Source of the DNA: Bacilli bacterium
GTDB taxonomy: Bacteria; Bacillota_I; Bacilli_A; RFN20; CAG-826
Assembly: GCA_024695235.1 (NCBI GenBank)
Contig: JAILIP010000009.1
Location: forward strand, 55,647 to 119,646
Reading direction: 5' to 3'
DNA: 64,000 bases
The notes below the pieces were generated by a model. The model searched no databases and was not told where the DNA came from. It saw only the letters and a list, made by a program, of their open reading frames with translations. A program made the position numbers and the translations under genes. Positions 25,887-41,412 of the stretch are shown one piece after another. Position 1 is the first letter of the stretch; the number at the start of each line of letters is the position of its first letter.

Positions 25887-27026
25887 ATGCAAAACTCAAA
25901 AGTTAAAAATGCTCTTCTTTATGGAGGAGTAAGCAAGGAAGAATACGAAAGAACAAAGCCTATTATCAATAGGACTAATCAAAAGATTTGGAAAATCTCA
26001 TCTGTTTTCTTTGAGATTCTCTTTTTAATTTTGTTCGTAGTTTCTTTAGTGACTCACCTTGCAATCGAAGACAAACCAGAGATATCAGAAATGTTCTTTG
26101 CCTACATGATTCCTTTTGGAGTCTTGTCATTTTACATGATAATCCTTGTCCTTGTTTTCCAAGGCGGATTCAAAAATAGTTCAAACGCATTACTTCCCCT
26201 TATTTATATTTCCATGGGAGTAATTCTAATATCGTTAGGTTCAATATCTATCTTTCTTGATGATGGTGTTAGTGGGGCAGCCTTTGTTGTCGCACTTATC
26301 ATTTTTCCGTTCTTTGTAACAGATAGACCTCTTAGATATATCATCTTTACCTTCTTAGCAGGAGTTATATATCTTTTACTTTCTTTATTTGTCAAAAAAG
26401 CATCTGTTGAATTAAAAATTAGAGATGTTATTTTAACAACGGCATCTATTCTTATTTCGATTTTCATCTCTATTGTTCTTAATATCACACGCGTTAGACG
26501 TAATGCGGATTTATACACACTTGAGTTACAAAGAGATACAGATGCCTTAACTTCTGTTAAAAACGTTAACGCTTATGACCGCAAAGTAGATGAACTTAAA
26601 GAAAAGATTCAAAACCATGCGGATGTTAGATTCGCAATCGTTATTTTTGATATCAACGATCTTAAATATATCAACGATAGTTATGGCCATCCTCAAGGTG
26701 ACCAACTCATCATTAGAACTGCAAAACTAATATGTGATGCTTTCAAGCATTCACCTGTCTATCGTATTGGTGGTGACGAGTTCGTCGCTATACTTGAAGG
26801 AATAGATTACTCAAATAGAGAAGTACTCATTCGTCAACTTCATGAAAGAATAGATCAAATTCACCAAGAAGCTAAAACAAGAAAAGATGATACATCAGTC
26901 GCCTTTGGTGTTGGAATATTTAATCCAAAGAACGACTTTGATTACATCACAGTGTTCTCACGTGCAGATGCAGAGATGTACGATAATAAGCGCATTGTGA
27001 AGGCCAGAAATGCTCAAAAGAAATAA
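25887..27026 (+). CDS. Membrane-bound diguanylate cyclase (GGDEF domain)
   Basis: The N-terminal half has approximately 5-6 TM segments. The C-terminal domain has FDINDLKYINDSYGHPQGD and an intact RIGGDEF active site. No RxxD I-site was seen upstream of GGDEF. Confidence 0.85.
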   Translation: MQNSKVKNALLYGGVSKEEYERTKPIINRTNQKIWKISSVFFEILFLILFVVSLVTHLAIEDKPEISEMFFAYMIPFGVLSFYMIILVLVFQGGFKNSSNALLPLIYISMGVILISLGSISIFLDDGVSGAAFVVALIIFPFFVTDRPLRYIIFTFLAGVIYLLLSLFVKKASVELKIRDVILTTASILISIFISIVLNITRVRRNADLYTLELQRDTDALTSVKNVNAYDRKVDELKEKIQNHADVRFAIVIFDINDLKYINDSYGHPQGDQLIIRTAKLICDAFKHSPVYRIGGDEFVAILEGIDYSNREVLIRQLHERIDQIHQEAKTRKDDTSVAFGVGIFNPKNDFDYITVFSRADAEMYDNKRIVKARNAQKK

Positions 27027-27195: not shown

Positions 27196-27882
27196 ATGAA
27201 AAAATCAAAAATCGTCGTCCCAGCCGTTGCATTATTAGCTCTTGGTTTGGCCGCTTCTACAACTGCTACAGTTGCATGGTTCCAAGCAACATCAGCAGCT
27301 ACATTAACAGACAAATCAGCACCAGCAACAGTTAATGTTCAATCTTCTACTTATAGTGCAGGTGCATATTATGTTAAAGCAACTGCATCATTCTCACCAA
27401 GCGCAGCTCTTGATTATACTGATAAGAATGGCTCCACTTGGGTAATCGTTAATGGTTATTTAAGAACAGCCGCAGTTAAAAGTGCAAAATACGCATCAGT
27501 TACAATTGCAGTAAACTTCTATTCGAACGAAGCTTGTACACAAGCTGCTACTGTATCCGAACTCGCTGAAATTGGCGCCGCATTTAGTGGTTTAACAGTT
27601 ACAATCAACCCAGATGCAAACACAAGATTAACAACCAGTGATCCAAGTAGCAATTTTGCTACAGCTTTCGCTTCTAAATTGGATGTTAGTGATACGGTCA
27701 ATGTTACCTTAAGCTCTGCCGGCGCAGCTTCATATTCGAATAATACCCATTATGTCTCAGTTAATGGCGATGGTACAAGTGAAGTTGCAGATGCTCACGT
27801 TGATGGCGAAGCCGCCGCATCAGAATACACTACAGATGGCGGACTTACATTAACAATCGCTTCTACAGCAAGATCTGCTTAA
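27196..27882 (+). CDS. Small secreted Ala/Ser/Thr-rich protein with a SipW-cognate-like signal peptide; candidate major fibre subunit
   Basis: 228 aa. The sequence runs MKKSK, then a hydrophobic helix, then TATVAWFQATS. The mature part is A/S/T/V-rich with beta-strand-like alternation. SD AGAAAGGA lies upstream. The gene is monocistronic, with its own promoter and a strong terminator. Confidence 0.6.
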   Translation: MKKSKIVVPAVALLALGLAASTTATVAWFQATSAATLTDKSAPATVNVQSSTYSAGAYYVKATASFSPSAALDYTDKNGSTWVIVNGYLRTAAVKSAKYASVTIAVNFYSNEACTQAATVSELAEIGAAFSGLTVTINPDANTRLTTSDPSSNFATAFASKLDVSDTVNVTLSSAGAASYSNNTHYVSVNGDGTSEVADAHVDGEAAASEYTTDGGLTLTIASTARSA

Positions 27883-27906: not shown

Positions 27907-27929
27907 GGCACACTATGTGTGCCTTTTTT
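27907..27929 (+). terminator. Intrinsic terminator after the 27196 gene
   Basis: GGCACAC-tat-GTGTGCC followed by T6. Confidence 0.8.
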
Positions 27930-28032
27930 AAAAGAAAGCAAATTATTTGGTTTCTACAATCTGACTTCGAGCAAAAACTTTTTGCATTTTCACACATATG
28001 TTACTATTATTAAAGGTGCGTATAGGTGGATT

Positions 28033-28407
28033 ATGAAACCATTAACAAAAAAGATTTTGATTTATAGTGGCCTTTCACTCGACATTATTGTCACTGTGTT
28101 TTTGTTTGTTTTATCAATCATAATGTTGGCCACAATGCCAGAAACATATCCTGGATTTGATATGAAAATGTATTATGAAAGCCATCCTGGTTTCATAACT
28201 TATTTGCAGGCAAATCCTACAGTATACTTATTAGCATGCGTCTTGCCTCTTGTTATTCTTTTGATTGGCAATATATTTTTACTTATTTTATTCATTAATA
28301 AAGCCGGAAAGAAAAAAGCGGCGTTGTCAGATTTATCAGAGGATCAAAAGGCTGCCCTTCGTGCTGAAATCCTTAAAGAAATGGATTCACCAGAAGAAAA
28401 GAAATAA
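28033..28407 (+). CDS. Small two-TM membrane protein with a charged C-terminal tail, unknown function
   Basis: Start at ATG 28033 (MKPLTKKILIYSG...), preceded by AGGTGG. It has two hydrophobic segments and the tail LSEDQKAALRAEILKEMDSPEEKK. Confidence 0.55.
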   Translation: MKPLTKKILIYSGLSLDIIVTVFLFVLSIIMLATMPETYPGFDMKMYYESHPGFITYLQANPTVYLLACVLPLVILLIGNIFLLILFINKAGKKKAALSDLSEDQKAALRAEILKEMDSPEEKK

Positions 28408-28426: not shown

Positions 28427-28450
28427 GCGAGCTCATACGGGCTCGCTTTT
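28427..28450 (+). terminator. Intrinsic terminator after the 28033 gene
   Basis: GCGAGCTC-atac-GGGCTCGC (8 bp, one G:T pair) followed by TTTT. Confidence 0.7.
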
Positions 28451-28485: not shown

Positions 28486-28515
28486 TTGAATACACGCATA
28501 TATACGTGATATATT
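28486..28515 (+). promoter_or_regulatory. Promoter TTGAAT-N18-(TGa)TATATT driving riboswitch 1 and operon 1
   Basis: -35 at 28486-28491 and an extended -10 TGATATATT at 28507-28515. The predicted start site lies at approximately 28522, at the 5' edge of the aptamer. Confidence 0.5.
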
Positions 28516-28521
28516 TAAATT

Positions 28522-28645
28522 AGCAAAAAGCAAAACCACAGTGATGTGGCGACGCAAAACTAAAGGGTCTTAATTAAGATAGCCAGTTGCCTAGAGGTTC
28601 TTATTGAACGCCACTAAATGGATGATAGGTAGCTGGCTTTTAAAA
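28522..28645 (+). promoter_or_regulatory. c-di-GMP-I (GEMM-I)-like riboswitch 1, aptamer plus terminator-type expression platform
   Basis: GCAAAACCACA-GUGA-UGUGGCGACGCAAAACUAAAGGGUCUUAAUUAAGAUAGCCAGUUGCC (28530-28591) has these features: a GNRA-capped hairpin, a GACGCAAA junction, a second hairpin with a CUAAAG/GAUAGCC receptor-like loop, and an AGCCAG-UUGCC closing. The 3' half (28581-28593) can instead pair with 28626-28638 in a 13-bp stem followed by UUUU. Confidence 0.7.
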
Positions 28646-28700: not shown

Positions 28701-29480
28701 ATGGTCGATTTAAGCTTTATTAGGAAACGTAAAGCTAAGAAAATCGTTGCACTAGTTGGCGGGTTATGTGGCGCTGCAGTAGTAGTTGTATCTGCTGTTG
28801 CCCTTTTGGGCCAAAGAGCCGCACCTTTAACTGTCAAGCTTACTAACAGTGGTGCATCATTAGCATTATTCAAGTCTGAATTCGAAAACGATCGTAAATC
28901 ATTCTTACTCGCTACTGATAGCAAACCATATACTGAAATAAGCGAACCCGCTTTACGCGCATATGAGAGCGTACTAGACGTGGATGATTCAAAACCTCTC
29001 CTCACATCGGATGAGCAATCACTCCAATTCTATCAATACACTTTCTATCTCACGAATAGTGGCGCAAGTGCAGCTGATTACACATTCAGCTTAAACATTT
29101 CCTATCCACACAGATCCAGCTTTGACTTAGCTGATGTTTTGCGTGTGCGCTTTTATGAGAATGACGGAAACGATAAGTTGACTCATAACTACAAGACTTA
29201 TGCCAAACACTCGGATATATATAATGCCGAAACAGGTGAATATGAACCTGAACGCATTTCTGGTAGTCAAAGTGAATTTGCTGAGAAGTTTGAAAATGCA
29301 AACACAGTTCTCACTCAAAACGTATCCGCTTTCCCTGCAGGAGCAGTCACACGTTACACAGTTGTCGTGTGGATTGAAGGTGAAGACCCACAAAGTAAAG
29401 GTCCAGCTCCAGTGGACTCTGGTATTGCTCTAGGAGTAAACATTAGTGCCCATGAAGCAGAGGAGACACCTCTCGAATAA
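28701..29480 (+). CDS. N-terminally TM-anchored or secreted beta-rich protein, TasA/camelysin-like candidate (paralogue group, WIEGEDP motif)
   Basis: 259 aa. A basic N-terminus is followed by the TM helix IVALVGGLCGAAVVVVSAVALLG, but with no AW[FY] motif. LTNSGAS occurs twice, like the N-G-S strand motif recalled from TasA. The C-terminal VVVWIEGEDP resembles VFVEGWDEH and QYIEGWDRD in the next two ORFs. Confidence 0.45.
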   Translation: MVDLSFIRKRKAKKIVALVGGLCGAAVVVVSAVALLGQRAAPLTVKLTNSGASLALFKSEFENDRKSFLLATDSKPYTEISEPALRAYESVLDVDDSKPLLTSDEQSLQFYQYTFYLTNSGASAADYTFSLNISYPHRSSFDLADVLRVRFYENDGNDKLTHNYKTYAKHSDIYNAETGEYEPERISGSQSEFAEKFENANTVLTQNVSAFPAGAVTRYTVVVWIEGEDPQSKGPAPVDSGIALGVNISAHEAEETPLE

Positions 29481-30495
29481 ATTATCTGCAACGCTTGCAG
29501 CGTCTATATTAGCCGTAGCACTCACAGGAGTTACCTGTGGGACTTTTGCTTGGTTTACGTACGAGACGCGCGCAAAGATTGAAGAATTTCAAGGAATTAC
29601 TATTGGAGTCGGTGATTTGCAAGTGGGTATTCTGTCAGAAGCATATTTAGATAGAGCTGAAGAATATGGTTTGATTAGAGATGAAAGTAATCCTAACGAA
29701 ACAATTTACTGGTTTGATGGTCATACCATGGAGAATGAAACAATTAACTATGTTTTAAGTTCAAACGGTTATGCCACAAATGCTTTGCATCCAGTAACTT
29801 CGCGTAAATATGTGACTGGTGATCCTCTCACCCTATATGCTGCTCCTGATTTTAAACCCGAAGAAGATGCCAAAGCATCAAAAGATGGTAGAATATTCTT
29901 GCCGTTAGTTTTTAAATACGAAGACATCATTGATGATAGTTTGATTTCAAATGAAAACATATTCCTGTCTGATGTAAAACTTTCAACGCCAAGCAGCGAT
30001 AGTTACATCCACAGGGCAGTTCGTGTTCATACGGATAACAAAAATAACAATCGTCATTTGATTAACCCAACAACAAGCGAAGATGGTTCTACTGGTGTTG
30101 GTGGTGTCTTAGATTTAAATAAAGACGGTTTTTATGATACCGAGGTTACAGGTAGCGACCTCCGAGAACATGTATATGGGCAAGCCGAGTTCCAATACAA
30201 AACTGAAGTAGAAACAGAGGACACTTTTGTTCCTATTGAACAAAGAACAACATTCAAAGCCGGGCATCTAGCAGGTGCCTATTCACTTGAATCGTGTACT
30301 CCTGAAAAAGCAGAGTATGAAGGTTTTTATGGCTTTAGGAATAAACGCAAATGGGTTGCAACTACAAATCCAGAGACGAACAACTATGCTTATCTAGACC
30401 TATCTGTATTTGTTGAAGGATGGGATGAACACGTCATCGATTCTGAACGAGATTTACCATTTTCCATGGAGTTGAAATTTGAAGTAGTATTCTAA
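29446..30495 (+). CDS. Secreted protein with a SipW-cognate-like signal peptide (paralogue A, DxNxDG loop, EGWD motif)
   Basis: The GTG at 29446 lies 9 nt after AGGAG; an alternative ATG is at 29452. The N-terminus is ...LAVALTGVTCGTFAWFTYETRA. It has GGVLDLNKDGFYD and ends with FVEGWDEH...SMELKFEVVF. Confidence 0.55.
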   Translation: MPMKQRRHLSNKLSATLAASILAVALTGVTCGTFAWFTYETRAKIEEFQGITIGVGDLQVGILSEAYLDRAEEYGLIRDESNPNETIYWFDGHTMENETINYVLSSNGYATNALHPVTSRKYVTGDPLTLYAAPDFKPEEDAKASKDGRIFLPLVFKYEDIIDDSLISNENIFLSDVKLSTPSSDSYIHRAVRVHTDNKNNNRHLINPTTSEDGSTGVGGVLDLNKDGFYDTEVTGSDLREHVYGQAEFQYKTEVETEDTFVPIEQRTTFKAGHLAGAYSLESCTPEKAEYEGFYGFRNKRKWVATTNPETNNYAYLDLSVFVEGWDEHVIDSERDLPFSMELKFEVVF

Positions 30496-30496
30496 A

Positions 30497-31561
30497 ATGA
30501 ATAAAAAACGTTTAGCAGCATTTGGAATAGCAATAACGGGTGTGATGTTAGTAGCATCTGTGGCTTTTACTGTTGCTTGGTACAATGGTTCATCTAATTT
30601 AGCAGTCTATAACTTCGACATTTCTCTAGGTGACAAGAAACTTACTATTTCCACAGATAATGTGAATTTCAAAGAAAACTTAACTAGAGATGATGTCAAA
30701 GACGCTATCCCGGAAAAATACAGGCCTGTTAGCAGTGCCTTCTCCAATGAATGGATAAGTCAAAAAGCAACCCTTCCGCAATTTACATCTGGTTACAACT
30801 ACATACCAGAAAAGGTGAATATGACATCAATTGATGATGTCAACAACGCTGATGATGGTGTATTCAGAAAAGTGTTATATCTCAAAAGTGATTCTTATGC
30901 AAAAGTATCTTTAGATGCAGAGAAAACTTACATTAACGCAGATAATGATTCAAATGAAAGCATTTCAGGAAAACTCAAAAAGGTATATCCAAACTTAACC
31001 AAAGAACAAATTGTGGAACAACTTAACAAAATTGAGAATTCACTTCGCTTCTCAATCCTTGTCTTAAATGATGATGGAAAAGAAGTTGATGATAGTGAAT
31101 ATCAATACACGATCGTGGATCCACATAAAAATGGAACCACAAAATTAGGTGGCATCTTGGATGCAGATGGCGACGGTTATTACGATAACGTCAATGGTAA
31201 AGAAGTCATTTATGGCGAAGTTAAAAACGCAAATGATGGAACCATCTCATATAAGAATGCTGAAGCAAACGATGTAGGGGAATCAGAGAATTGTTTTGAT
31301 TCCAAACATAAAGCCGGCGTCCAAGCCTTAGATTTTGAATCTTCAGAATCAAAAGGTATGGAAATAGTCGAAGAACACTCTTTATCCTTAGAGGAACTTA
31401 GTCAGTTCACCTTTACACTTCAGGCTGATGTCTCTAAGAAGATAGTGTTGTCCCAATATATTGAGGGTTGGGATAGAGATAGTGATAATTACACAATGTT
31501 TTCCCGTTTTGTCACTAGTATTTGTTTCAAACTAGCAGACGGGGGGAATGGAGGCAACTAA
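30497..31561 (+). CDS. Secreted protein with a SipW-cognate-like signal peptide (paralogue B, DxDxDG loop, EGWD motif)
   Basis: MNKKRLAAFGIAITGVMLVASVAFTVAWYNGSS, with GGILDADGDGYYD and YIEGWDRDSDNY...ICFKLAD. Its length and motif order match the 29446 ORF. Confidence 0.55.
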   Translation: MNKKRLAAFGIAITGVMLVASVAFTVAWYNGSSNLAVYNFDISLGDKKLTISTDNVNFKENLTRDDVKDAIPEKYRPVSSAFSNEWISQKATLPQFTSGYNYIPEKVNMTSIDDVNNADDGVFRKVLYLKSDSYAKVSLDAEKTYINADNDSNESISGKLKKVYPNLTKEQIVEQLNKIENSLRFSILVLNDDGKEVDDSEYQYTIVDPHKNGTTKLGGILDADGDGYYDNVNGKEVIYGEVKNANDGTISYKNAEANDVGESENCFDSKHKAGVQALDFESSESKGMEIVEEHSLSLEELSQFTFTLQADVSKKIVLSQYIEGWDRDSDNYTMFSRFVTSICFKLADGGNGGN

Positions 31562-31564
31562 AAT

Positions 31565-33091
31565 ATGTCAGCATATTTTCAATATTTAGGTGCAATGATT
31601 GTGGAATTTTTCAAAAACTTTGGAGGATTTTTTGCCGCAGGGTGGAAACTACTTCCAAGCCAATTTGAAAGATATAACGCAATATATAAAGCCTATTCAC
31701 CAGACTTTGGTGCTGGTGGATGGATAATGTGGGTTATTTTCCTCATTGTCTTTATAGGTGCAATTGGAGCACTCGGATTTGGAATTTATCTACTTCTCCG
31801 CAAATACATTAAATTTGCTAAGAAAGAAATTGAGAAGGATGAACTTCAAAGACAAATTGGTAGACTCAATTACGAGTTATATCAAATCATGCAAGAAAGA
31901 GATCGTATCTTAGATATGAAAGTTAAATCTCTTGGCATTGATAAAAAGATTGGACCAGAAGGAGAAGGTGGAGAGCCATCTGAAGATGAGCAAACAATCG
32001 AGGAACTTCAATCTAGATTCCCTAAATTAACTCACGTTGATAATCTCTATCGTGGAAAAGATAACGAAATTCCAGAAGTTGAAGGTCTCACATTAAAAGA
32101 TCTTTGTGAAAACTTCCGTAACTTCGCAGCATCTCAACTTGGTCTATACTATACCATCACAACTATCAGACAATTATTTGCTGGTATCGGTGCTGGTAAA
32201 CTCGTCATTCTCGAAGGTATTTCTGGTACAGGTAAAACTTCCTTACCATATGCTTTAGGTAAATTCTTTGCTCATGATGCTGAAATCTGTTCAGTTCAAC
32301 CTAACTGGAAAGATAGATCTGAACTTCTTGGTTACTACAACGAATTTACTAAGAAATTTAATGAATCCGAATTCTTACGCGCGCTATATACTACTTTATA
32401 TAGAAGAGATTTAAATATCATCGTCCTCGATGAAATGAACCTTGCCCGTGTTGAATATTACTTTGCTGAATTCTTATCCGTTTTGGAAATGCCTAATCCA
32501 AATGAATGGAACATTGAACTTATCGGTTCACATGATGAAAACGATCCAAAACAATTCAAGAATGGCAAAATCAAAATCCCTCAAAACGTTATCTTCTTTG
32601 GAACAGCCAATAACGATGACTCAACCTTTACAATCTCCGATAAGGTTTACGACCGTGCTATTTGCTTGTTCTTCGATAACAAAGGTATTCCATTTGAAGC
32701 TCCATTCCAAGCTCCAATGGTTGTACCATATACACAAATGCAAAGACTATTTGATGAAGCTGACGCCAAATATCCTTGCAGTGAAGATACATTAATGAAA
32801 TTTGCTGAACTAGACGACTTCGTTATTAAGAAATTCCGTCTTGCATTCGGTAACCGTATCTTAAAACAACTCAAGAAATTCGTTCCATGCTTTGTTGCCT
32901 GCGGTGGAACAGAACTTGACGCAATTGACTTTATCTTTACAAACAAGATTCTTAAGAAGTTTGAATCCCTTAACATCGGATTCTTGAAAGTAGAGCTCAA
33001 AGAGCTCAATGCTATGCTTGATAGACTTTTCGGAGCCGATAATTTCCCAATGGCTCACAAGTTTGTCAATAACTTAATTAGAATGGCTTAA
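31565..33091 (+). CDS. Membrane-anchored McrB-like AAA+ (AAA_5/dynein-related clade) NTPase
   Basis: It has one TM segment (WIMWVIFLIVFIGAIGALGFGIYLLL) followed by a basic stretch and a coiled coil. The NTPase core has Walker A GISGTGKTS, SVQPNWKDRSELLGYYN, Walker B plus signature IIVLDEMNLARVEYYFAEFLSVLE, and FFGTANNDDSTFTISDKVYDRA. SD GGAGG lies upstream. Confidence 0.65.
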   Translation: MSAYFQYLGAMIVEFFKNFGGFFAAGWKLLPSQFERYNAIYKAYSPDFGAGGWIMWVIFLIVFIGAIGALGFGIYLLLRKYIKFAKKEIEKDELQRQIGRLNYELYQIMQERDRILDMKVKSLGIDKKIGPEGEGGEPSEDEQTIEELQSRFPKLTHVDNLYRGKDNEIPEVEGLTLKDLCENFRNFAASQLGLYYTITTIRQLFAGIGAGKLVILEGISGTGKTSLPYALGKFFAHDAEICSVQPNWKDRSELLGYYNEFTKKFNESEFLRALYTTLYRRDLNIIVLDEMNLARVEYYFAEFLSVLEMPNPNEWNIELIGSHDENDPKQFKNGKIKIPQNVIFFGTANNDDSTFTISDKVYDRAICLFFDNKGIPFEAPFQAPMVVPYTQMQRLFDEADAKYPCSEDTLMKFAELDDFVIKKFRLAFGNRILKQLKKFVPCFVACGGTELDAIDFIFTNKILKKFESLNIGFLKVELKELNAMLDRLFGADNFPMAHKFVNNLIRMA

Positions 33092-33095
33092 TTAA

Positions 33096-35021
33096 ATGGC
33101 TAAACAATCATCAAGCAAATATCGAAAATTAGAAAGAAGCTATGCTTCAAAATCTAAAAAACTTTATTCATCAAATGATGGTAAAGAACTTTTAGATATC
33201 ATTTCTAGTGGTCGCAATAAGTATTTAAGATTAGATCGATTTGAATCATCCGCGATGGATATGACATGGATTAAACAAATCGAAGATTGTATTGATCCTT
33301 TAGGTGATATTGTTAATAACCCTAAAAAGACAATCCAAACTCTTACAGAGGTTGTACAAGTTGAGAAAGTCAAAAAGATTGGCATTGAAACAGTTCAACA
33401 TCTTTCAAGTCACACCCAATTTATTAAGACGATTGATGAAAATGGTGATGTCACTCCATCAAAACTTCTCAACGTCTACAATGATGACTTCTATGCGATT
33501 TATGAAAATAGATTCATTGCAACATTAATTCGCCATCTATTGATATTTGTTGAAAAACGTTATCAATTCGTTTTGCAAAACGCTACTCTATCTGACGTTG
33601 GAGTTCTTTATATGAAGAACCATACTGAACACGATGGAGCAGTCATCGATATTGAAACAAAAGTAAGATATTCACGTCCTGCTGAAGCAGTTGCTATTGA
33701 TAAACTAAAAGGATATCTCAAACGTATCGAAGATATTCGTAAATATCTAAAGTTCTATGCGAACACAGAATTTATGAAGATTCTCCGTCGTGAAAGAGAC
33801 GTCCGTAACCCAATCTTGCAGACAAACATTATTCGTAAGAACCCTAAGTATCATAAATGTTACTTACTCTGGCTATTTATCAATCGCTTTAAAGAAGCAG
33901 GAATTGAAGTTAAAGTCGAAGAAAACTATTCAGAACTTTCTGAAGAACAAATTCGTGAGATCAACGAAACTATGTGTTCATCGTTCCTCCTATTAAGAGG
34001 AAAAGACATGTCTCCTAGAACTGAAAAGTCCAAGAAGGCATATAAACCAGTCTTCATGAAGACATACGATGATGAAATCTATAAACCAATGGACTACAAA
34101 GGTCCAATTGAATATATCCGTGTTGATGATAAGTATCGCGAATACTCTGAATCTTTACATGTGGTTGAACCACACCCAACCAAGCAACGAAAAGCATACG
34201 ACAAAGAAAAATATGACGACAATAAAGCTCGTCGTGTTAAGAAAGCAGAGGTCGATGCTTTGCTAAAACGTAAAGAAAAAGAAAAAGCTATATATGAAGA
34301 GAACGAGAAACTTGCACTCGAACGCGAGATTGCGCGTGATAAATATGTAGAAGAAAAAGCAGAACAAGAAATCCGTGAAGAAGCTATTGCTAAAGTTGAA
34401 AAAGCACGTGAAAAACTTGTTGGTAAAGCTAATAAGGCTAAACCTGCTCCTAAGAAGAAAGTAGTAGAAAAGAAACAACCTAAGAAAGCTCCTGCCAAGA
34501 AGGCCGAACCTAAAAAGAAACCAGTCAAGAAGGCTGAGCCAAAGAAACAGCCTGTTGAAAAAGCAGAACCTAAGAAGGAAAAACCGGCTAAAAAAGTTGA
34601 GAAAAAAGTCGAAAAGAAGCCTGTTAAGAAGGTAGAGAAAAAGGTTGAACTAAAACCTGCTAAGAAGCCAGTTGTTCAAAAGAAAGAATCTAAACCAAAA
34701 GAGGCTCCTAAAAAAGCACCGGTAAAGAAGGAAACACCTAAAAAGGTGGCTAAACCAAAACCAGCGCCTAAAAAAGAAGAGCCAAAGAAGGTTGAAGAAC
34801 CAAAACCTAAGGTAGAAAAACCTGTTGAAGCTAAACCAGTTGAACCTGTCAAAGTGGTGGAACCTCCAAAAGAGGAAAAACCAGTTGAACAACCTAAACC
34901 GGTAGAAGCTCCGAAGGTTGAGCCAAAACCTGCTCCAAAGAAAGCTCCTAAACCAAAAGCGAAGAAAGAAAAACCTGAAACTTTCGCTAAGCTTTCATCA
35001 TTTAGAAGCAAGATTAAATAA
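33096..35021 (+). CDS. McrC/DUF2357-like partner protein lacking an obvious nuclease domain, with a coiled coil and a Lys/Pro-rich tail
   Basis: 641 aa with no TM segment. The central segment YAIYENRFIATLIRHLLIFVEKRY...NPKYHKCYLLWLFINRF resembles the ENRF-type core recalled from McrC-family partners of McrB-like NTPases. It is translationally coupled to the AAA+ gene (4-nt gap). The C-terminal approximately 230 aa are low complexity. Confidence 0.45.
   Translation: MAKQSSSKYRKLERSYASKSKKLYSSNDGKELLDIISSGRNKYLRLDRFESSAMDMTWIKQIEDCIDPLGDIVNNPKKTIQTLTEVVQVEKVKKIGIETVQHLSSHTQFIKTIDENGDVTPSKLLNVYNDDFYAIYENRFIATLIRHLLIFVEKRYQFVLQNATLSDVGVLYMKNHTEHDGAVIDIETKVRYSRPAEAVAIDKLKGYLKRIEDIRKYLKFYANTEFMKILRRERDVRNPILQTNIIRKNPKYHKCYLLWLFINRFKEAGIEVKVEENYSELSEEQIREINETMCSSFLLLRGKDMSPRTEKSKKAYKPVFMKTYDDEIYKPMDYKGPIEYIRVDDKYREYSESLHVVEPHPTKQRKAYDKEKYDDNKARRVKKAEVDALLKRKEKEKAIYEENEKLALEREIARDKYVEEKAEQEIREEAIAKVEKAREKLVGKANKAKPAPKKKVVEKKQPKKAPAKKAEPKKKPVKKAEPKKQPVEKAEPKKEKPAKKVEKKVEKKPVKKVEKKVELKPAKKPVVQKKESKPKEAPKKAPVKKETPKKVAKPKPAPKKEEPKKVEEPKPKVEKPVEAKPVEPVKVVEPPKEEKPVEQPKPVEAPKVEPKPAPKKAPKPKAKKEKPETFAKLSSFRSKIK
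34435..34980 (+). repeat. Lys/Pro/Glu/Val-rich low-complexity coding repeats (imperfect KKxEPKK / PKxxEKPVE units)
   Basis: The translated tail reads KPAPKKKVVEKKQPKKAPAKKAEPKKKPVKKAEPKKQPVEKAEPKKEKPAKKVEKKVEKKPVKKVEKKVELKPAKKP...EPKPKVEKPVEAKPVEPVKVVEPPKEEKPVEQPKPVEAPKVEPKPAPKKAPKPKAKK. The spurious antisense ORFs at 34094-35011 are by-products of this composition. Confidence 0.85.
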
Positions 35022-35026
35022 ATTAT

Positions 35027-35794
35027 ATGAGTGAGGAAAAATTAGAAGTAGTCGATAAACCAAAAAAAGACAAAAGCAAAGGTAAGAAGATTAAATCCAT
35101 TGTTGAATGGACCATTATTGGAATCTTCATTAGTGCTGCGTTAGTCTTGGTAGGTTTTAAGATTTACTCAAGCAAGACAAACAAGTCAATGTTTGGTTCA
35201 CAATATCCAGTCGTTCTTACTGACTCAATGGAACCAGACTACAAGGTTAAAGACGTATTGGTAGTAAAAGAAGTTGATCCCGCAGTACTTAAAGAAGGCG
35301 ATGATGTTACCTTCTATTGGGATTTAACTGGTAAAGGTGATGTTTATCCGATGACCCATAGGGTCAAGTCCATTGAATACTTCGCAAATGCCGAAGAAAA
35401 CGATGGATATCACTATACAATCATCACTCATGGTATCAATACCAAATCAAACCAATGTGGTAAGCCTGAAGGATGCGACATGACGTGGCAAACTCAAACA
35501 TTTCACGAAGATGCCCTCATTGGAAAAGTGGTTAGAAAAAGTTGGTTCTTGAAATTTGTTACTTCTGTTTGGGGATTGATTCTTTTAATTCTTCTGCCGT
35601 GTCTATACATCATGACTACAACTGTTGTAGATGCGTTCAAGAAGCTTGAAGAAGCCGATAAAGAAGCAGAACTTACTACTGTGGGCGTTGGAGAAAAACC
35701 AGATAATGATCCACTTGCAGGACTATCTGAAAATGATATTGAAGCCCTTAAGAAACAGATGCTTGATGAGATGTTAAATAAAGGAAAGAAATAG
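35027..35794 (+). CDS. SipW-like (archaeal/ER-type, S26B) signal peptidase I
   Basis: It has an N-terminal TM segment, the catalytic Ser box VVLTDSMEP, the His box PMTHRV, and a C-terminal TM segment (VWGLILLILLPCLYIMTTTVV). This is the same architecture as B. subtilis SipW as recalled (LSGSMEP/THRI), plus N- and C-terminal charged extensions. Confidence 0.75.
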   Translation: MSEEKLEVVDKPKKDKSKGKKIKSIVEWTIIGIFISAALVLVGFKIYSSKTNKSMFGSQYPVVLTDSMEPDYKVKDVLVVKEVDPAVLKEGDDVTFYWDLTGKGDVYPMTHRVKSIEYFANAEENDGYHYTIITHGINTKSNQCGKPEGCDMTWQTQTFHEDALIGKVVRKSWFLKFVTSVWGLILLILLPCLYIMTTTVVDAFKKLEEADKEAELTTVGVGEKPDNDPLAGLSENDIEALKKQMLDEMLNKGKK

Positions 35795-35795
35795 T

Positions 35796-37331
35796 ATGAA
35801 AAACAAATTGTATGCAAAACCTAAACAACTATTGGTGATTTCATCGATCGTTTTCGTGCTGGTTTTAGCAGCATCTGTTGTTTTATTCGTGCTTGGTTTC
35901 TTTACCGAACTCCCATTTATTGCATATATTTCCTTCGTGTTGTTACCACTCGCAGGTGCGTTCTTACTATTTTCAATTTTAAATTATGCGAAGAATGACA
36001 ATATGCTAAGAACACTTCAAATTGAAAACCAATATCAACTTGGCATCGGAAACTATTTCTTCAATTATCAAATGTTCTCTGAACGAGTAAAAAAATTACG
36101 TCGTAAACATGATCTTGATAAGACATATGTTATCGCATTCTCTGTATATAACATCCTCAGTAGTGGAACCATATCTTCATATCAAAGAAGATTGAATGGT
36201 TATATTGCATCATTTATTGGGGCAAAGGTTTTCCAAACCAAGATGGTAAACCCAAATGATATTGCTTTCTGTTTCCATAGAAACGTATTCATCGTGTATT
36301 CCTTTATGGATTTAGATAAGACTCGTGAATTAATCGAGATACTCCGTAAAGCAATATATGAAATCGTTAAAGAAAAGGAACTCAAAGTATTTGTTCAACC
36401 ACATTTTGGTGTTGCAGAAATTCTTCCTACAACAGACATTATCGTTGGAGTGGATAATGCCATCTTTGCTCGTAACGTAGATGAAAGAAACTTTGAAGAA
36501 TTGACATTCTACAAAGATGACTTCCGCGTCGAAACAAATAAAGATGAGATCGAAGAAATTAGAGATGCATTAAAGAACAATGAATTTGTTGTCTACTATC
36601 AACCAAAGTTTGATGTATCCAAAAAGAAATTTGTTGGCTTTGAAGCTCTTATTAGATGGAATTCACCTAGATATGGTTTACTCCTTCCGGGAAGATTTAT
36701 TGAAAAAGCTGAAATCGGTGGTCTAATCCATGAATTAGATATGTTCGTTCTTAGACAAGTTATTAAGGATTTAGAAAACCTTAAAGCAAGAAACATGAAT
36801 TTACTTCCTGTTTCTGTTAACTTCTCATTATATGAATTCTATTCCTCAGCATTTTTAACAGAATTAATTGAACTTATTGATAGATCTGCTTTAAAGCCAG
36901 AACTTATTGAAATTGAAATTACCGAAACTACAACCCAAGCCAATACATTCATGGCTACATCGATTCTTAATCGTCTCCGTAATCACGGACTCAAGATTTT
37001 AATGGATGATTTTGGAAGTGGATTCTCAAATCTTCTCCAACTTAATTCATTACCATTTGATGCAGTTAAGATTGATAAGTGCCTTATTGATGGAGTTGCC
37101 TCTGATCCTAAGACAAAAGAAATCGTTAAACTTGTTATTGGTTTATGCAAAGCCAATCAACTAGGCATTGTTGCAGAAGGTGTTGACTCCAAAGAAAAAG
37201 TCGATGTCTTAACCAAAATGGGTTGTGATGTCATCCAAGGATTCTACTATTCTGAACCTCTATCTCTATTAGAGGCCCTAGAATTTTTAGATGACAATCC
37301 GTTCACCAAGAAAGGAGGAAGTAAGAAATGA
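35796..37331 (+). CDS. Membrane-anchored c-di-GMP phosphodiesterase (degenerate GGDEF plus intact EAL)
   Basis: It has two N-terminal TM segments. The GGDEF-like domain has HRNVF in place of GGDEF. The EAL domain has all hallmark motifs: FEALIRW, VNFS, EIEITE, DDFGSGFS, KIDK, AEGVD and QGFYYS. Confidence 0.8.
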   Translation: MKNKLYAKPKQLLVISSIVFVLVLAASVVLFVLGFFTELPFIAYISFVLLPLAGAFLLFSILNYAKNDNMLRTLQIENQYQLGIGNYFFNYQMFSERVKKLRRKHDLDKTYVIAFSVYNILSSGTISSYQRRLNGYIASFIGAKVFQTKMVNPNDIAFCFHRNVFIVYSFMDLDKTRELIEILRKAIYEIVKEKELKVFVQPHFGVAEILPTTDIIVGVDNAIFARNVDERNFEELTFYKDDFRVETNKDEIEEIRDALKNNEFVVYYQPKFDVSKKKFVGFEALIRWNSPRYGLLLPGRFIEKAEIGGLIHELDMFVLRQVIKDLENLKARNMNLLPVSVNFSLYEFYSSAFLTELIELIDRSALKPELIEIEITETTTQANTFMATSILNRLRNHGLKILMDDFGSGFSNLLQLNSLPFDAVKIDKCLIDGVASDPKTKEIVKLVIGLCKANQLGIVAEGVDSKEKVDVLTKMGCDVIQGFYYSEPLSLLEALEFLDDNPFTKKGGSKK

Positions 37332-38077
37332 TTTTAATCATTGGAACAAATCATGATGATGTTCTTTACTATGAAAGCATTCTTTCATCTCCTAAAGAAG
37401 AAGTTATCCTAGATAAGTATCACGCACTCGTTGGAACAATCGCTTCTCAAGAAACAATGGTCCTTCAAGATGTGTATACATCATACTTATCAGGAATACT
37501 TGCAACATATATCATCAATCATTACTTCATTTCTTTAATCATCAATGTCGGTAGATGTGAAGCTATCTCTGATTCACTTAAAGTAGGGGATATAGTGCTC
37601 TCTGAATCTATTGTCTTTGGTGATGTCGATCAAATTGCCTCTTTGAAAGGTACGACCCTCGGTCAAATTCCTGGATATCCTCGTTCATTTGCGGTTCCAA
37701 ATAACCTAACTAGGAACTTATATACTTCTTTAGAGAAGATTGTTGATAAACGATTTGTTTTAGCAACATTTGTTTCCTCCTCGTTCTTTAGACAAAGCAA
37801 AGAAAGAGTAGGAGAAATTTCTAAGGATGAATATATTAACTCTCTAAATCAAAATATTGTCCTCGATGGAGAAAGTGCTGGCATCGCTTTAGTGAGTCAA
37901 CTCACACATGTTCCATTCATTGCTGTTAAAGTGGTGGAAGCTAAGGCTGGCAATTATACTTCCTTAGAAGATTACTTACTTGTTTTAGATGAGTATGCAC
38001 CTCTAGGCAAAGCTGTATCAAACTTCATTGGTGAGATTTCTCGTACTGATATTTTAAGAATAGGAGGTAAGTTCTAA
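37328..38077 (+). CDS. Divergent MTA/SAH-nucleosidase-fold (PNP_UDP_1) protein
   Basis: It is collinear with Pfs/MtnN (MILIIGTNHDDV, IINVG..., LKVGDIVLSE, GQIPGYP, LDGESAG, VPFIAVK), but several canonical residues are substituted: EME becomes DGE and RAISD becomes KVVEA. Confidence 0.55.
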   Translation: MILIIGTNHDDVLYYESILSSPKEEVILDKYHALVGTIASQETMVLQDVYTSYLSGILATYIINHYFISLIINVGRCEAISDSLKVGDIVLSESIVFGDVDQIASLKGTTLGQIPGYPRSFAVPNNLTRNLYTSLEKIVDKRFVLATFVSSSFFRQSKERVGEISKDEYINSLNQNIVLDGESAGIALVSQLTHVPFIAVKVVEAKAGNYTSLEDYLLVLDEYAPLGKAVSNFIGEISRTDILRIGGKF

Positions 38078-41000
38078 TGGCAAAAAAAGAAGTTATGTCT
38101 TTAAAGTCCTATTCTAAAAAGGCTTTACTAACCATTATCCTTTTATTCTTAATGGTGCTTATTCTTACCGGAGGAGTAATTGCTTCTATTTATCTAGTTT
38201 TAAACCAATTACTTCAAATTCTTATTTGTTCATTCCTAGTTTTAGGAATTCTTATTGCTCTTTTCTACATCGTCTTTATTGGTAAACGCTTATATGATCT
38301 TTTCTATAAGCAAGGAATTGAGATTACAACTCATAATATTCAAGCGTTATCAAATTTTGATAAGAGTTTTGACTATTATGAAGAAGATGAATATAAAGAA
38401 CTTAAAGATTTAAATACAACATTTAAAGATATTGCAAAAAACGTTGGGGGAAGAACAATTATCTCTCAAGGCCTTGCTCATCAAGAAGTGCCATTAAAGT
38501 ATGACGATGAGGCAAAACATTTTGTGAATGAATCATCTCTTATCAAGAATATGCATTCACTTATAATTGCTTCTGAATCATATCGAAATGCATTGATTGA
38601 TATTTCATATAACTTAGGCAAAGAGACAATTGAAGAAAAAAGTGTTTCTCGTATTTATAATACGATTAAAGAAAACCTTTCATATGAACATGTTCTAATT
38701 TCTTTTAAAGAAAACAAACAAGGATTTGTTGTATATGTTCCGGCATTTGATTCAATCAACCAATTAAAAGAAGAATTAGAATATATCATTAAAGATATTT
38801 CTCTAGTGAAAAAAGGCGGAACAACAAAACGTGCTGTAGTTGCGCACGTAAGTGTTGCTATTTATCCATATTCATCAATTGATAATCTTGTTAAAGACTT
38901 ATCTAAAGCTAGAAAAGAAAAGAAAGTTCTTAATATTTATATTCCAGAAAGAACATTTGAATTTAATAACAAATTGCTATTCTCTTCGATGAATATCAAT
39001 AACACAACTAAACTCATTGAAGATGTCTCATCAATTGTTCCAGATCCAAAACTATATGCATCTAATTTAACAAGAATTAAAAAGTGCATTGATAACACAT
39101 CTAACTATTATGGCTTTGATGCCGCAGGATATCTTGGATATGACAAAGATAACGAAAAATATATAAATGTATACTCATTCACATCTAAAGACGAAGTCAT
39201 ATTCAAAGATTCAGTCGATATATCTAAGAAATTTATCCAAACTCTTAACGCTGTTAAAGATAGCGATTCAAGTTACTACTTCTCAAGCAGAAAACATATT
39301 AATAACAGACTAGCGTTATATGTCGATCAATACCGCATCCGTTCAGGTTTATTTTACATCCTATCGCGTGATGATAAACCATTCGGTGTGTTATATTTCC
39401 TTAATCGTCATAAAGACTTATCCTTTGACGCATATATGAAGGAATCTTTGATTACTTCATGTCATGTCTTAGGTAGCGTTTTAGAAAAGATGGACGCAAG
39501 AAGAAATGTTAATGTTGCAGATAAGCGTCTCAGTGAGATATTAAAAATCTCTGGAATGACCCTATATTCGGTCAATAAGGCCAATTATGAGATTGTTAGG
39601 TATTCTCAATCACTTTTGCGTTTATTCCCGTCATTTGACCCTTCTATGCCTTGTTATAAGGCTCTATATGGTTTAAATAAACCTTGTAAGAACTGTCCAC
39701 TTAAGCAAAAACGTCATATGATAAGTGAAATTAATTCACATAAATATGAAGTATATCCTGTCTTTGCTAACAAGTATGATCCAACTGCTCACTTATTAAT
39801 TCAACCTCAAAAAGGTGATGATGTATCTGAAAGATTTGATGATGAAACATTACTTTCAAGCTTTGCTTCATTTAGAACGGATTTATCTAACCAATTGCTT
39901 TCTAACGTAAGTGGCAAGATTCTCCTACTTAAAGTCAAGAACATCAAAGATGTTATATCCTCAGTTAAAAACGGTGGATATGTCACACTTATCAAAGAGT
40001 TCTCTGATAGAGTATTAACTCATTATGTAGACTTTGCTGACGTATATCAATTTAATAGTTCAACGCTTGCGTTGATTCTTCATGATAAGAGCGATGAAGA
40101 CATCGTTTCTATCTGCCAAGAAATCTGTGATATTGTTCAATCAGAAAAGGTTGATGATACACATCTATCATTTATGTATTTAGTTAAGAACTACTCCGCT
40201 AATGATACAAATGACGCACTTCAAAAAACATTGCTTGATGCGCTTGATAAATACAAAGATGAAAATGAAGATGAAATCGTCTTTGTTGATACTGAATATA
40301 AGCGTAGTGCATCTTTAGACGGATACCTTCTTGAACAACTATTGTCCTCCTTTGGAGAAAAGACATATGATATGGAATTCACTCCATTATTATCAAACAA
40401 CACCCGTCTTGTTTATGGAGTTGAAATCACTCCTAATATTGTCGATAGAAATGTAAATAAACGATTAGATATTTCTAAGGCAATAGAAGTGGCACATAAT
40501 AAGGGCTTTGGAGACATCTATAGTGATGGAATGTTATTGTATTTAGATGATCTAATTAGTAGATATACGTATACCTTCTTTATGTCCACAGATATATCAT
40601 GTATGTCACTTAAAGTTGATCATAATTTCATCAATCAAGATCGCTTTATAGAGCATCTAAAAGAGATATATTCTAAGCATCAATTGCCTAAAGGATTTAT
40701 TGCCTTTGAGGTGAGTGAAGATGATGTCTACGAACACGAAAAAGAATACAAAGAAATCGTTAGAAAAGCTGCTCAAATTGGTGTTAATTTCATAGTCTAT
40801 GACTATGAAGGTAACAAATATACAGTTGCTTCATTAGGCGAACTTGGCTTTAAAGAAATTAAGTTCTCTAAGAAGATTTTGTCCTCTATTAATGATCGAG
40901 ATTCATATAACCAAACAACCTATATGTGGCTTGAAGCTATCAAGCAACAAATGAAGGTCAATTTCACTGGTGTTGAATCTCGTAAATCATCAGAAGCTAT

Positions 41001-41124
41001 CGTCTTTGAAGGTTACGATTGCGGAGTTCAAGGTGACTATTACTTCAAGCCAATGGATGAAGTAAAAGCCTTTGAAGTTATTAGAACTCGTAACATGAAA
41101 GACAAAGATAATCTTGATAACTAA
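38077..41124 (+). CDS. Large membrane-anchored protein with degenerate GGDEF and degenerate EAL domains (candidate c-di-GMP receptor)
   Basis: 1015 aa with two closely spaced N-terminal TM segments and a Cys motif PCYKALYGLNKPCKNCP. The GGDEF-like segment ILLLKVKNIKDV...VYQFNSSTLALILHD has no GGDEF. The EAL-like C-terminus has substituted motifs: GVEITPN for EAL, FEVSED, VYDYEGN for DDFGTG, IKFSK for KIDK, TGVES and QGDYYFKP. Confidence 0.55.
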   Translation: MAKKEVMSLKSYSKKALLTIILLFLMVLILTGGVIASIYLVLNQLLQILICSFLVLGILIALFYIVFIGKRLYDLFYKQGIEITTHNIQALSNFDKSFDYYEEDEYKELKDLNTTFKDIAKNVGGRTIISQGLAHQEVPLKYDDEAKHFVNESSLIKNMHSLIIASESYRNALIDISYNLGKETIEEKSVSRIYNTIKENLSYEHVLISFKENKQGFVVYVPAFDSINQLKEELEYIIKDISLVKKGGTTKRAVVAHVSVAIYPYSSIDNLVKDLSKARKEKKVLNIYIPERTFEFNNKLLFSSMNINNTTKLIEDVSSIVPDPKLYASNLTRIKKCIDNTSNYYGFDAAGYLGYDKDNEKYINVYSFTSKDEVIFKDSVDISKKFIQTLNAVKDSDSSYYFSSRKHINNRLALYVDQYRIRSGLFYILSRDDKPFGVLYFLNRHKDLSFDAYMKESLITSCHVLGSVLEKMDARRNVNVADKRLSEILKISGMTLYSVNKANYEIVRYSQSLLRLFPSFDPSMPCYKALYGLNKPCKNCPLKQKRHMISEINSHKYEVYPVFANKYDPTAHLLIQPQKGDDVSERFDDETLLSSFASFRTDLSNQLLSNVSGKILLLKVKNIKDVISSVKNGGYVTLIKEFSDRVLTHYVDFADVYQFNSSTLALILHDKSDEDIVSICQEICDIVQSEKVDDTHLSFMYLVKNYSANDTNDALQKTLLDALDKYKDENEDEIVFVDTEYKRSASLDGYLLEQLLSSFGEKTYDMEFTPLLSNNTRLVYGVEITPNIVDRNVNKRLDISKAIEVAHNKGFGDIYSDGMLLYLDDLISRYTYTFFMSTDISCMSLKVDHNFINQDRFIEHLKEIYSKHQLPKGFIAFEVSEDDVYEHEKEYKEIVRKAAQIGVNFIVYDYEGNKYTVASLGELGFKEIKFSKKILSSINDRDSYNQTTYMWLEAIKQQMKVNFTGVESRKSSEAIVFEGYDCGVQGDYYFKPMDEVKAFEVIRTRNMKDKDNLDN

Positions 41125-41144
41125 TTTAAATGATTATCTGAATG

Positions 41145-41167
41145 AGTAGGCTTATTGCCTACTTTTT
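41145..41167 (+). terminator. Intrinsic terminator ending operon 1
   Basis: AGTAGGC-ttatt-GCCTACT followed by TTTTT. Confidence 0.8.
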
Positions 41168-41308: not shown

Positions 41309-41324
41309 ATACTTGAACTTGATA

Positions 41325-41412
41325 AAGGCAAAACTACAGTGATGTAGTGACGCAAAGCTAAAGGGTCTTGATTAAGATAGCCAGTTGCCAATAATGGTGA
41401 CTGGCTTTTAAA
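41325..41412 (+). promoter_or_regulatory. c-di-GMP-I (GEMM-I)-like riboswitch 2, aptamer plus terminator-type expression platform
   Basis: GGCAAAACUACA-GUGA-UGUAGUGACGCAAAGCUAAAGGGUCUUGAUUAAGAUAGCCAGUUGCC (41327-41389). GGCAA/UUGCC closes P1. 57 of 63 positions are identical to copy 1, with one compensatory C-G to U-A change in the GNRA hairpin. 41379-41390 can alternatively pair with 41395-41406 (12 bp, loop AUAA) followed by UUUU. Confidence 0.75.

Follow-up and report, generated by a model that had tools for sequence, protein, structure and literature searches.

McrBC is a textbook modification-dependent restriction enzyme. What, then, is a McrBC-like gene pair doing in an operon that encodes a signal peptidase and putative surface proteins? 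The question is raised by a stretch of 64,000 nucleotides (nt) from a CAG-826 Bacilli genome (assembly GCA_024695235.1, contig JAILIP010000009.1, positions 55,647-119,646), which we refer to as the window. It encodes a membrane-anchored GTPase of 508 amino acids (aa) that resembles McrB, followed immediately by a 641-aa McrC-like partner that has no nuclease. The pair is an example of CoCoPALM, a kind of system which has been named (PMC11090510) but is uncharacterised. On balance, we think it likely that this is a domesticated McrBC pair, in which the membrane GTPase and its nuclease-less partner (a protein of the DUF2357 family) serve a SipW-like signal peptidase and a set of secreted proteins with an 'AWF' signal, all under the control of cyclic di-GMP (c-di-GMP).

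A membrane-anchored GTPase of the McrB clade

The starting point was a first-pass annotation of the window. An open reading frame (ORF) check reproduced its gene coordinates, protein sizes (508 and 641 aa) and 4-nt intergenic gap exactly, and all the GTPase motifs which it quoted are present in the window protein. The GTPase has the following features.

31565..33091, + strand: McrB-like GTPase, CoCoPALM-type, 508 aa, built of a transmembrane (TM) helix, a short coiled coil and an AAA+ domain of the McrB clade
31715-31798, + strand: TM helix, aa 51-78, the sole strong hydrophobic segment
~aa 80-120, + strand: coiled coil, with heptad-spaced conserved hydrophobic residues
32216-32242, + strand: Walker A motif GISGTGKTS, aa 218-226
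aa 245-259: motif QPNWKDRSELLGYYN
aa 287-308: motif VLDEMNLARVEYYFAEFLSVLE
32423-32440, + strand: Walker B motif VLDEMN
32609-32620: NxD(D) signature, carried by FFGTANNDDS, aa 344-353
aa 363-365: motif DRA

Judged by its sequence, this nucleoside triphosphatase (NTPase) is a member of the McrB clade and does not belong with the secretion ATPases. The PDB sequences it matched were McrB only, both as a single sequence (E 8e-4) and as a profile of 37 relatives with 61-91% identity (E 1e-4). When the same profile was compared with E. coli McrB, hhalign gave a probability of 95% (E 3.5e-8) over 239 columns, which cover the whole AAA+ module. Many close relatives also have a precomputed PF07728 match. 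No unrelated AAA+ clade emerged from the PDB searches, and the McrB affinity proposed in the first-pass annotation is upheld.

The nucleotide-binding motifs are intact. The Walker A motif, the Walker B motif and GTANNDD / GTANNDDSTFTISDKVYDR are invariant in the 37 relatives. The signature itself is N349-N350-D351 followed by D352, and this agrees with the NxD branch of McrB GTPases, in which the signature is shortened and usually followed by E or D (PMC11090510).

The N-terminal part has the TM helix and coiled coil that had been proposed to replace the usual DNA reader. The coiled coil is recognisable from the spacing of L94, I98, L101, L105, I108 and I115, four of which are invariant among relatives. 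Because the basic stretch RKYIKFAKK directly follows the hydrophobic segment, the positive-inside rule predicts that the AAA+ domain is cytoplasmic, which agrees with the earlier placement of the NTPase at the cytoplasmic face.

Two further observations concern the GTPase. The PADLOC candidate defence model PDC-M26A matches its AAA+ core (E 6.6e-40), which shows no more than a core in common with defence-type relatives. The mean column identity of the GTPase is 72%, versus 35% for T3, a secreted protein encoded just upstream; the same contrast, with a motor conserved far more strongly than what is secreted, is seen in pilus machineries.

The database copy of the window GTPase (P0001, 498 aa) begins at Met11, and the additional N-terminus (31565-31594) reads MSAYFQYL... 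Most relatives share this longer N-terminus, so the start that yields 508 aa is probably the right one.

A partner without a nuclease

The gene directly downstream encodes a soluble protein with these features.

33096..35021, + strand: nuclease-less McrC-like partner, soluble, 641 aa
33285-33905, + strand: DUF2357 domain, ~aa 64-270
aa 135-149: motif IYENRFIATLIRHLL
33642-33662, + strand: VIDIETK, aa 183-189
aa 252-265: motif YHKCYLLWLFINRF
aa 300-368: conserved short motifs
34203-34397, + strand: long helix/coiled coil, aa 370-434, from an AlphaFold2 (AF2) model and conserved in relatives
34401-35018, + strand: Lys/Pro-rich tail, aa 436-641 (36% Lys, 18% Pro, net charge +47)

No hydrophobic segments were found in the partner, and the full-length protein matched nothing in Pfam, NCBIfam or PADLOC. 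With the tail trimmed, however, it matched Pfam DUF2357 at aa 65-160 with 28.3 bits, above the gathering cut-off of 23.3. Close and distant relatives of the partner score 27-33 bits with the same model, and 6 of 33 pass at E<=0.01. In addition, hhalign aligned aa 64-270 with a DUF2357-annotated protein that is encoded after an AAA_5 ATPase on a Deinococcus plasmid (96.5% probability), and it matched the partner to a paralogous pair in one related locus (L001, described below) with 97% probability. On these sequence comparisons the partner is a protein of the DUF2357, or McrC N-terminal, type, as had been suspected. DUF2357 is the N-terminal domain of McrC, which enters the ring of McrB subunits and promotes the hydrolysis of GTP (PMC11090510).

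A Pfam scan of the window partner and 33 relatives found no nuclease family. The AF2 model, which is of moderate confidence (predicted local distance difference test, pLDDT, 76.8; predicted template modelling score, pTM, 0.52), consists of helices and a single extended beta-hairpin (aa 166-195). It contains neither a PD-(D/E)xK alpha-beta-beta-beta-alpha-beta core nor the space for one, and past aa 301 there is just disorder and one long helix, aa 370-434, with a pLDDT of ~82-87. The first-pass annotation, which had found no convincing nuclease, was thus right on this point.

Two short motifs were considered as nuclease candidates and rejected. The first, VIDIETK, had been singled out in the first-pass annotation; it is present, although at nt 33642-33662 and not at 33646-33663 as originally given. 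Its Lys is K or R across relatives and there is no conserved upstream Asp; it lies in the beta-hairpin within the DUF2357 span, and this hairpin could not be aligned in the Deinococcus relative. The second, E271-x-K273, fails because position 271 may be E, D, N, S, H, T or A among relatives.

Conservation and model confidence do not always coincide in the partner. Residues 302-360 are disordered in the AF2 model despite their conserved short motifs, and the prediction is poor for aa 85-128, a segment of strong conservation. The latter may become ordered only upon binding to the ring.

The coiled coil and Lys/Pro-rich tail which had been described at the C-terminus are both there in the window protein, but the tail is not conserved among relatives. 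Tail length ranges from 0 to 1891 aa, and composition ranges from strongly acidic to strongly basic. Of the tails that exceed 30 aa (n=64), 24 carry a net positive charge, 28 carry a net negative charge and 12 are close to neutral. In the closest species-representative relative (L004, 89% GTPase identity), only ~15 residues extend past the start of the tail.

Among the relatives, partners in some species reach 1596-2331 aa with strongly acidic tails (e.g., L013, 4599-11594; L045, 9017-15760; L041, 6556-11346), and others are nearly tail-less (e.g., L004 and L008). Some tails contain repeated RGGARPGAGRKPK units which resemble AT-hooks, and one relative matches Pfam AT_hook (E 1.7e-4). Another group of partners has a conserved C-terminal domain of ~50 aa, IPGKFIVK..GYY...FDDF..A..IK...GGKVIKL. 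Tails with RGGARPGAGRKPK units or the end domain can be found in alignment A1 (P0148, P0156, P0171, P0172, P0178, P0179; P0206, P0211, P0214, P0219, P0224, P0227, P0240).

One unit under c-di-GMP control

The GTPase and partner genes are members of a single tightly packed unit under the control of a c-di-GMP riboswitch. The unit has nine genes (28701-41124), which are spaced by gaps or overlaps of a few nt.

28427-28446: strong terminator, ends the upstream unit
28486..28515, + strand: promoter-like site (TTGAAT, 18-nt spacer, TATATT, upstream TG) just 5' of the riboswitch, by consensus match only
28519..28594, + strand: c-di-GMP-I riboswitch aptamer, heads the operon (Rfam RF01051, 57.7 bits; gathering score 35)
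28701..29480, + strand: T1, 259 aa, N-terminal membrane anchor/signal, first gene of the unit, with homologues in the same position in relatives
29446..30495, + strand: T2, 349 aa, 'TFAWF' N-terminus, putative SipW substrate
30497..31561, + strand: T3, 354 aa, 'TVAWY' N-terminus, beta-rich secreted protein
31565..33091, + strand: GTPase
33096..35021, + strand: partner
35027..35794, + strand: SipW-like (archaeal/ER-type) signal peptidase I, 255 aa, with TM segments at both termini and a charged tail in the cytoplasm
35796-37331, + strand: EAL phosphodiesterase, in the distal part of the unit
37328-38077, + strand: PNP_UDP_1 (nucleoside phosphorylase family) protein, between the two EAL genes
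38077-41124, + strand: 1015-aa membrane EAL protein, last gene of the unit
41144..41164, + strand: terminator-like hairpin and T run, closes the unit

In the central part, the gaps by ORF coordinates are 3 nt (T3 to GTPase), 4 nt (GTPase to partner), 5 nt (partner to SipW-like peptidase) and 1 nt (SipW-like peptidase to EAL). The only strong terminators around the unit are those at 28427 and 41144. The aptamer, the small gaps and the terminators at both ends bear out the earlier description of a tightly coupled, riboswitch-controlled operon. The arrangement is also kept in relatives: a c-di-GMP-I riboswitch lies 5' of the homologous operon in all seven of the diverse loci that were sampled, including those of Acholeplasmataceae and Izemoplasmatales with 44-48% identity. 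For the distal genes, Pfam EAL was matched at E 1.5e-66, homologues bear PF01048 and PF00563, and gene order is conserved.

Two variations were seen among relatives. One Acholeplasmataceae chromosome (L063) has two tandem c-di-GMP-I riboswitches before the homologous operon (6175-6408) and a third downstream (14853-14927). The PNP_UDP_1 gene keeps its position in most loci of >= ~50% identity and is lost in the most distant ones.

Linkage to a SipW-like peptidase and AWF-type proteins

The peptidase gene that follows the partner appears sipW-like, as first annotated. Its product matches TIGR02228 (E 1.9e-11, 44 bits) and the SipW model (E 3.9e-11, 42.9 bits), in each case below the curated cut-off (51.85 and 190, respectively). 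The catalytic Ser and His boxes, S67-M68 and H111-R112, are invariant in 14 of 14 relatives (alignment A5). In the window clade, 'GIN' stands in place of the 'GDN' box. Every relative has a TM near its C-terminus and, beyond it, a tail in the cytoplasm that is helical, charged and conserved (KERLKKELLEEM-like).

Five ORFs in the window have a hydrophobic N-terminus that ends in A-W-F or A-W-Y (AWF-type), a signal which we take to resemble the 'GGTFAYF' of the SipW-cognate proteins TasA and CalY. Two of them are T2 and T3, which are weak paralogues of one another (E ~1e-5). The others lie outside the nine-gene unit, the last two behind a riboswitch of their own.

27196-27882, + strand: 'TVAWF' protein of the upstream unit, 228 aa, Ala/Thr/Ser-rich
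41318-41393, + strand: second c-di-GMP riboswitch, GGC variant (Rfam RF03167, 60.7 bits)
41438-45220, + strand: giant AWF-type protein, 1260 aa, behind the second riboswitch
45232-49122, + strand: giant AWF-type protein, 1296 aa, behind the second riboswitch

The giant proteins contain Big_3 domains and are probably adhesins, as further substrates of the same SipW-like peptidase.

How general is this association? Using two peptide patterns, we located at least 581 stretches matching the GTPase in species-representative genomes (GTDB). The locus comparisons in this report used the 80 best loci, one genome per species, with GTPase identities of 44-89% to the window protein. These come from uncultured Bacilli, metagenome-assembled genomes labelled Erysipelotrichaceae, Izemoplasmatales, Acholeplasmataceae and Anaeroplasmataceae. 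The family is larger still in protein databases (>8000 matching proteins), and among the 120 listed, almost all are near full length (~500 aa).

Among loci with enough room to tell, the partner directly follows the GTPase in 76 of 77. With the family hidden Markov model, 69 of 70 loci show a SipW-like gene in the same orientation and no more than 7 kb away, and the 70th has one just past a partner of 2331 aa. AWF-type ORFs occur in 65 of 67. The survey which the first-pass annotation had proposed thus finds the pair linked to SipW-like and AWF-type genes. A tblastn search of plasmids and phages, by contrast, found no full-length GTPase with the TM helix and coiled coil; the matches there cover the AAA+ domain only, with 28-39% identity and <=66% coverage.

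One related locus has a second pair. In L001 (contig CAYQEK010000001.1), positions 1-2984, directly upstream of the homologous operon, encode a divergent McrB-like/DUF2357-like pair: a 910-aa GTPase with GTANRDES (PADLOC PDC-M26A, E 1.9e-51) and a partner of 522 aa that has zinc ribbons at its C-terminus. Such a second pair is absent from the window.

Comparison with known systems

The first-pass annotation supposed that the pair was undescribed, and this proved incorrect. Bell, Makarova, Wolf and Koonin (eLife 2024, PMC11090510) mention 'another large clade' of NxD GTPases, which they named CoCoPALM. Their description runs to three sentences and a supplementary figure, with analysis deferred to a later paper. 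It lists an FtsB-like N-terminus made of a TM and a coiled coil, a coiled-coil McrC homologue and signal-peptidase-family genes. The window pair shares the NxD GTPase, the N-terminal TM and coiled coil, the coiled-coil McrC homologue and the signal-peptidase-family gene; no feature contradicts the paper, and limited tests did not reproduce the published FtsB homology for the window GTPase. New relative to that paper are the c-di-GMP-I riboswitch that controls the unit, the neighbours with AWF signals, a nuclease that is completely absent from this clade, a partner tail that is hypervariable and the spread over uncultured Bacilli, Acholeplasmataceae, Izemoplasmatales and Anaeroplasmataceae. A literature search found no papers that mention PDC-M26, and the 'mcrB' in a paper on C. 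perfringens BsaA refers merely to an E. coli strain genotype.

E. coli McrBC (PDB 6HZ4, 6UT6, 7VSR) has the same AAA+ GTPase core with Walker A/B and Asn/Asp signature, the same gene order (partner immediately 3') and DUF2357 in the partner. However, the window GTPase has a TM helix and coiled coil in place of the N-terminal DNA-binding domain, and an NxD signature where McrB has NxxD. Its partner lacks both the PD-(D/E)xK nuclease and any detectable PF10117 similarity, and the pair resides in a secretion/adhesion operon and not in a restriction island.

CoCoNuTs, which belong to the same NxD branch, also have coiled coils on their McrB and McrC homologues, and their McrC nuclease is often lost or inactivated (PMC11090510). 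They differ from the window pair in being soluble, whereas the window GTPase is membrane-anchored and has a pilus/adhesin setting, and they are predicted defence systems which always come with HEPN or another nuclease (PMC11090510). Our Pfam scan found no nuclease family among the operon genes that it covered.

The tapA-sipW-tasA operon of B. subtilis likewise encodes a dedicated archaeal-type signal peptidase together with secreted proteins, in a biofilm/adhesion context. It has no NTPase, however, and the c-di-GMP riboswitch is a feature of the window operon.

Type IV pili, archaella and type II secretion systems combine a hexameric NTPase in the cytoplasm with a leader peptidase of their own, special N-terminal signals and, frequently, c-di-GMP control. 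By analogy, the window operon may be said to have a comparable parts list. The parts themselves differ: PilB/GspE NTPases are unrelated to the McrB AAA+ family, the prepilin peptidase is an aspartyl peptidase while that of the window is of the signal peptidase I type, and the window GTPase has a single TM anchor, with no polytopic platform protein identified in the window operon.

Proposed role of the pair

We propose that the 508-aa protein would form a ring, presumably hexameric, on the cytoplasmic side of the membrane, where TM helices and short coiled coils would hold it. The 641-aa partner would be a McrC homologue reduced to DUF2357 and a coiled coil, and could stimulate GTP hydrolysis in the ring as such a domain does in McrBC. 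Because it has neither nuclease nor DNA reader, the module would no longer restrict DNA. Instead, it would cooperate with the SipW-like peptidase and the AWF-signal proteins (T2, T3, the protein at 27196 and the giant adhesins), acting as a cytoplasmic GTP-driven energiser or gate for the processing, assembly or extrusion of a putative surface fibre or adhesin. The leader riboswitch would let c-di-GMP switch the whole unit. Hexamer formation, the use of GTP, coupling to SipW or the subunits and a role in assembly are steps that we infer. A physical link between the pair and the SipW-like peptidase is suggested by the conserved charged tail of the peptidase and the coiled coils on both GTPase and partner.

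We favour repurposing for a surface fibre because the linkage to SipW-like and AWF-type genes is near-universal and full-length copies were not found on plasmids or phages. This was one of two readings in the first-pass annotation, the other being a defence module. Nor does the pair behave as an ordinary mobile restriction module, since it has no intact nuclease and stays with the SipW/AWF genes.

Several results weigh against the proposal, some of them at the level of the family assignments. The window GTPase scores 21.3 bits with Pfam AAA_5, slightly under the cut-off of 22, and FtsB homology of its N-terminus was undetected in limited tests (Pfam, and hhalign against E. coli FtsB). For the partner, hhalign against E. 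coli McrC (PF10117) gave a probability of 0.1%, and a Foldseek search of the AF2 model against PDB (threshold E<=1e-3, as for all such searches here) returned no match and did not recover McrC; the partner profile against PDB sequences gave low-complexity noise only, again with no McrC. Because direct similarity to E. coli McrC is undetectable, the link between partner and McrC rests on DUF2357 and gene order.

Other results concern the proposed substrates. The upstream genes had been called TasA-like, and this label was not confirmed: T1-T3 and the other AWF proteins had no Pfam or NCBIfam match to TasA/camelysin (Peptidase_M73), and the T3 profile matched no PDB sequence. T3, the only one of these neighbours to be modelled, gave a good AF2 model (pLDDT 86.8, pTM 0.83), yet Foldseek found nothing in PDB at the threshold and no TasA fold, and an archaeal bundling pilin (7UEG) appeared at E 1.4. 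On the strength of its model, T3 may have an unrecognised fold of a secreted or pilus protein. Finally, our literature search found no follow-up or experimental study of CoCoPALM. The well-studied SipW/TasA systems (B. subtilis tapA-sipW-tasA) are not known to require an NTPase, so a motor is not an obvious requirement.

A bolder version of the proposal can be entertained, though we doubt it more than we believe it. CoCoPALM might be a third, independently evolved NTP-driven pilus or fibre machine derived from a restriction enzyme, in which a membrane-tethered McrB ring and a nuclease-less McrC stalk working as a camshaft use GTP hydrolysis to assemble, extrude or retract SipW-processed subunits of novel fold. 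Such a machine would be controlled by c-di-GMP and would operate in Bacilli with reduced genomes, from the gut and the environment, and in relatives that resemble Mollicutes.

If repurposing is correct, a defence motor would have been recruited for cell-surface biogenesis, having lost its reader and nuclease and gained a membrane anchor. It would be the first NTPase tied to surface proteins of the SipW type, those processed by signal peptidase I. The system has a wide distribution: it occurs in Bacilli of gut and rumen, most of them uncultured, and in lineages akin to Acholeplasma and Izemoplasma, whose adhesion biology is scarcely explored, and the conserved c-di-GMP riboswitch offers an experimental handle for induction.

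Alternative explanations

The best of the alternatives, which we nonetheless hold to be unlikely, is that the pair acts as a checkpoint and not as a motor. Here the GTPase-DUF2357 complex would sense the nucleotide or c-di-GMP state and, by contacts between coiled coils and the charged peptidase tail, license or block SipW cleavage and the release of the AWF-signal proteins, doing no mechanical work. Much of the locus is compatible with this: SipW-like proteins retain a C-terminal TM and charged helical cytoplasmic tail, GTPase and partner alike have coiled coils, genes for c-di-GMP turnover fill the operon behind a riboswitch, and the Sec-exported, SipW-cleaved proteins of B. subtilis are not known to need a dedicated motor. 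However, Pfam scans detected no c-di-GMP-binding domain in GTPase or partner, and the invariant Walker B and sensor residues would, judging from sequence, favour real nucleotide turnover over mere binding.

A McrBC-derived, membrane-tethered anti-phage or abortive module, either riding in a biofilm operon or guarding the pilus as a phage entry site, seems to us quite improbable. In its favour, the GTPase matches PDC-M26A, the closest plasmid-borne relatives are AAA_5 and DUF2357 pairs of a CoCoNuT-like kind, and a second divergent pair adjoins the operon in L001. Against this, the pair has no nuclease or other effector domain, Pfam recognised no nuclease family among the operon genes that were scanned, and no PADLOC model matches the partner, so component A of PDC-M26 was matched without its partner component. 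Defence islands are usually patchy and fast-evolving, whereas the GTPase sequence is highly conserved and stays beside SipW-like and AWF genes almost without exception across 80 species of 44-89% identity. With the effector absent, the synteny fixed and mobile copies not found by tblastn, a defence role is therefore unlikely, and near-fixed synteny favours the repurposed reading over a mobile one.

Least credible of all is a DNA-handling device, in which the polycationic tail of the partner binds DNA and a membrane McrB-like translocase tethers or exports it for the biofilm matrix: the window tail is strongly basic, some relatives have AT-hook-like RGGARPGAGRKPK repeats and McrB is a presumed DNA translocase (PMC11090510), but the GTPase has no N-terminal DNA-reader domain, L004 manages with nearly no tail, and a general DNA-binding role is unlikely because tails vary in length and from acidic to basic.

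Other neighbouring genes

T1 matches no family in Pfam or NCBIfam. The unit upstream of the riboswitch, to which the 'TVAWF' protein belongs, also contains a small conserved membrane protein.

27919-28407, + strand: small conserved membrane protein of the upstream unit (28033-28407 was used as a search query)

Just upstream of the locus, at 25887-27026, is a gene for a membrane-bound GGDEF-type protein, which recurs beside several relatives.

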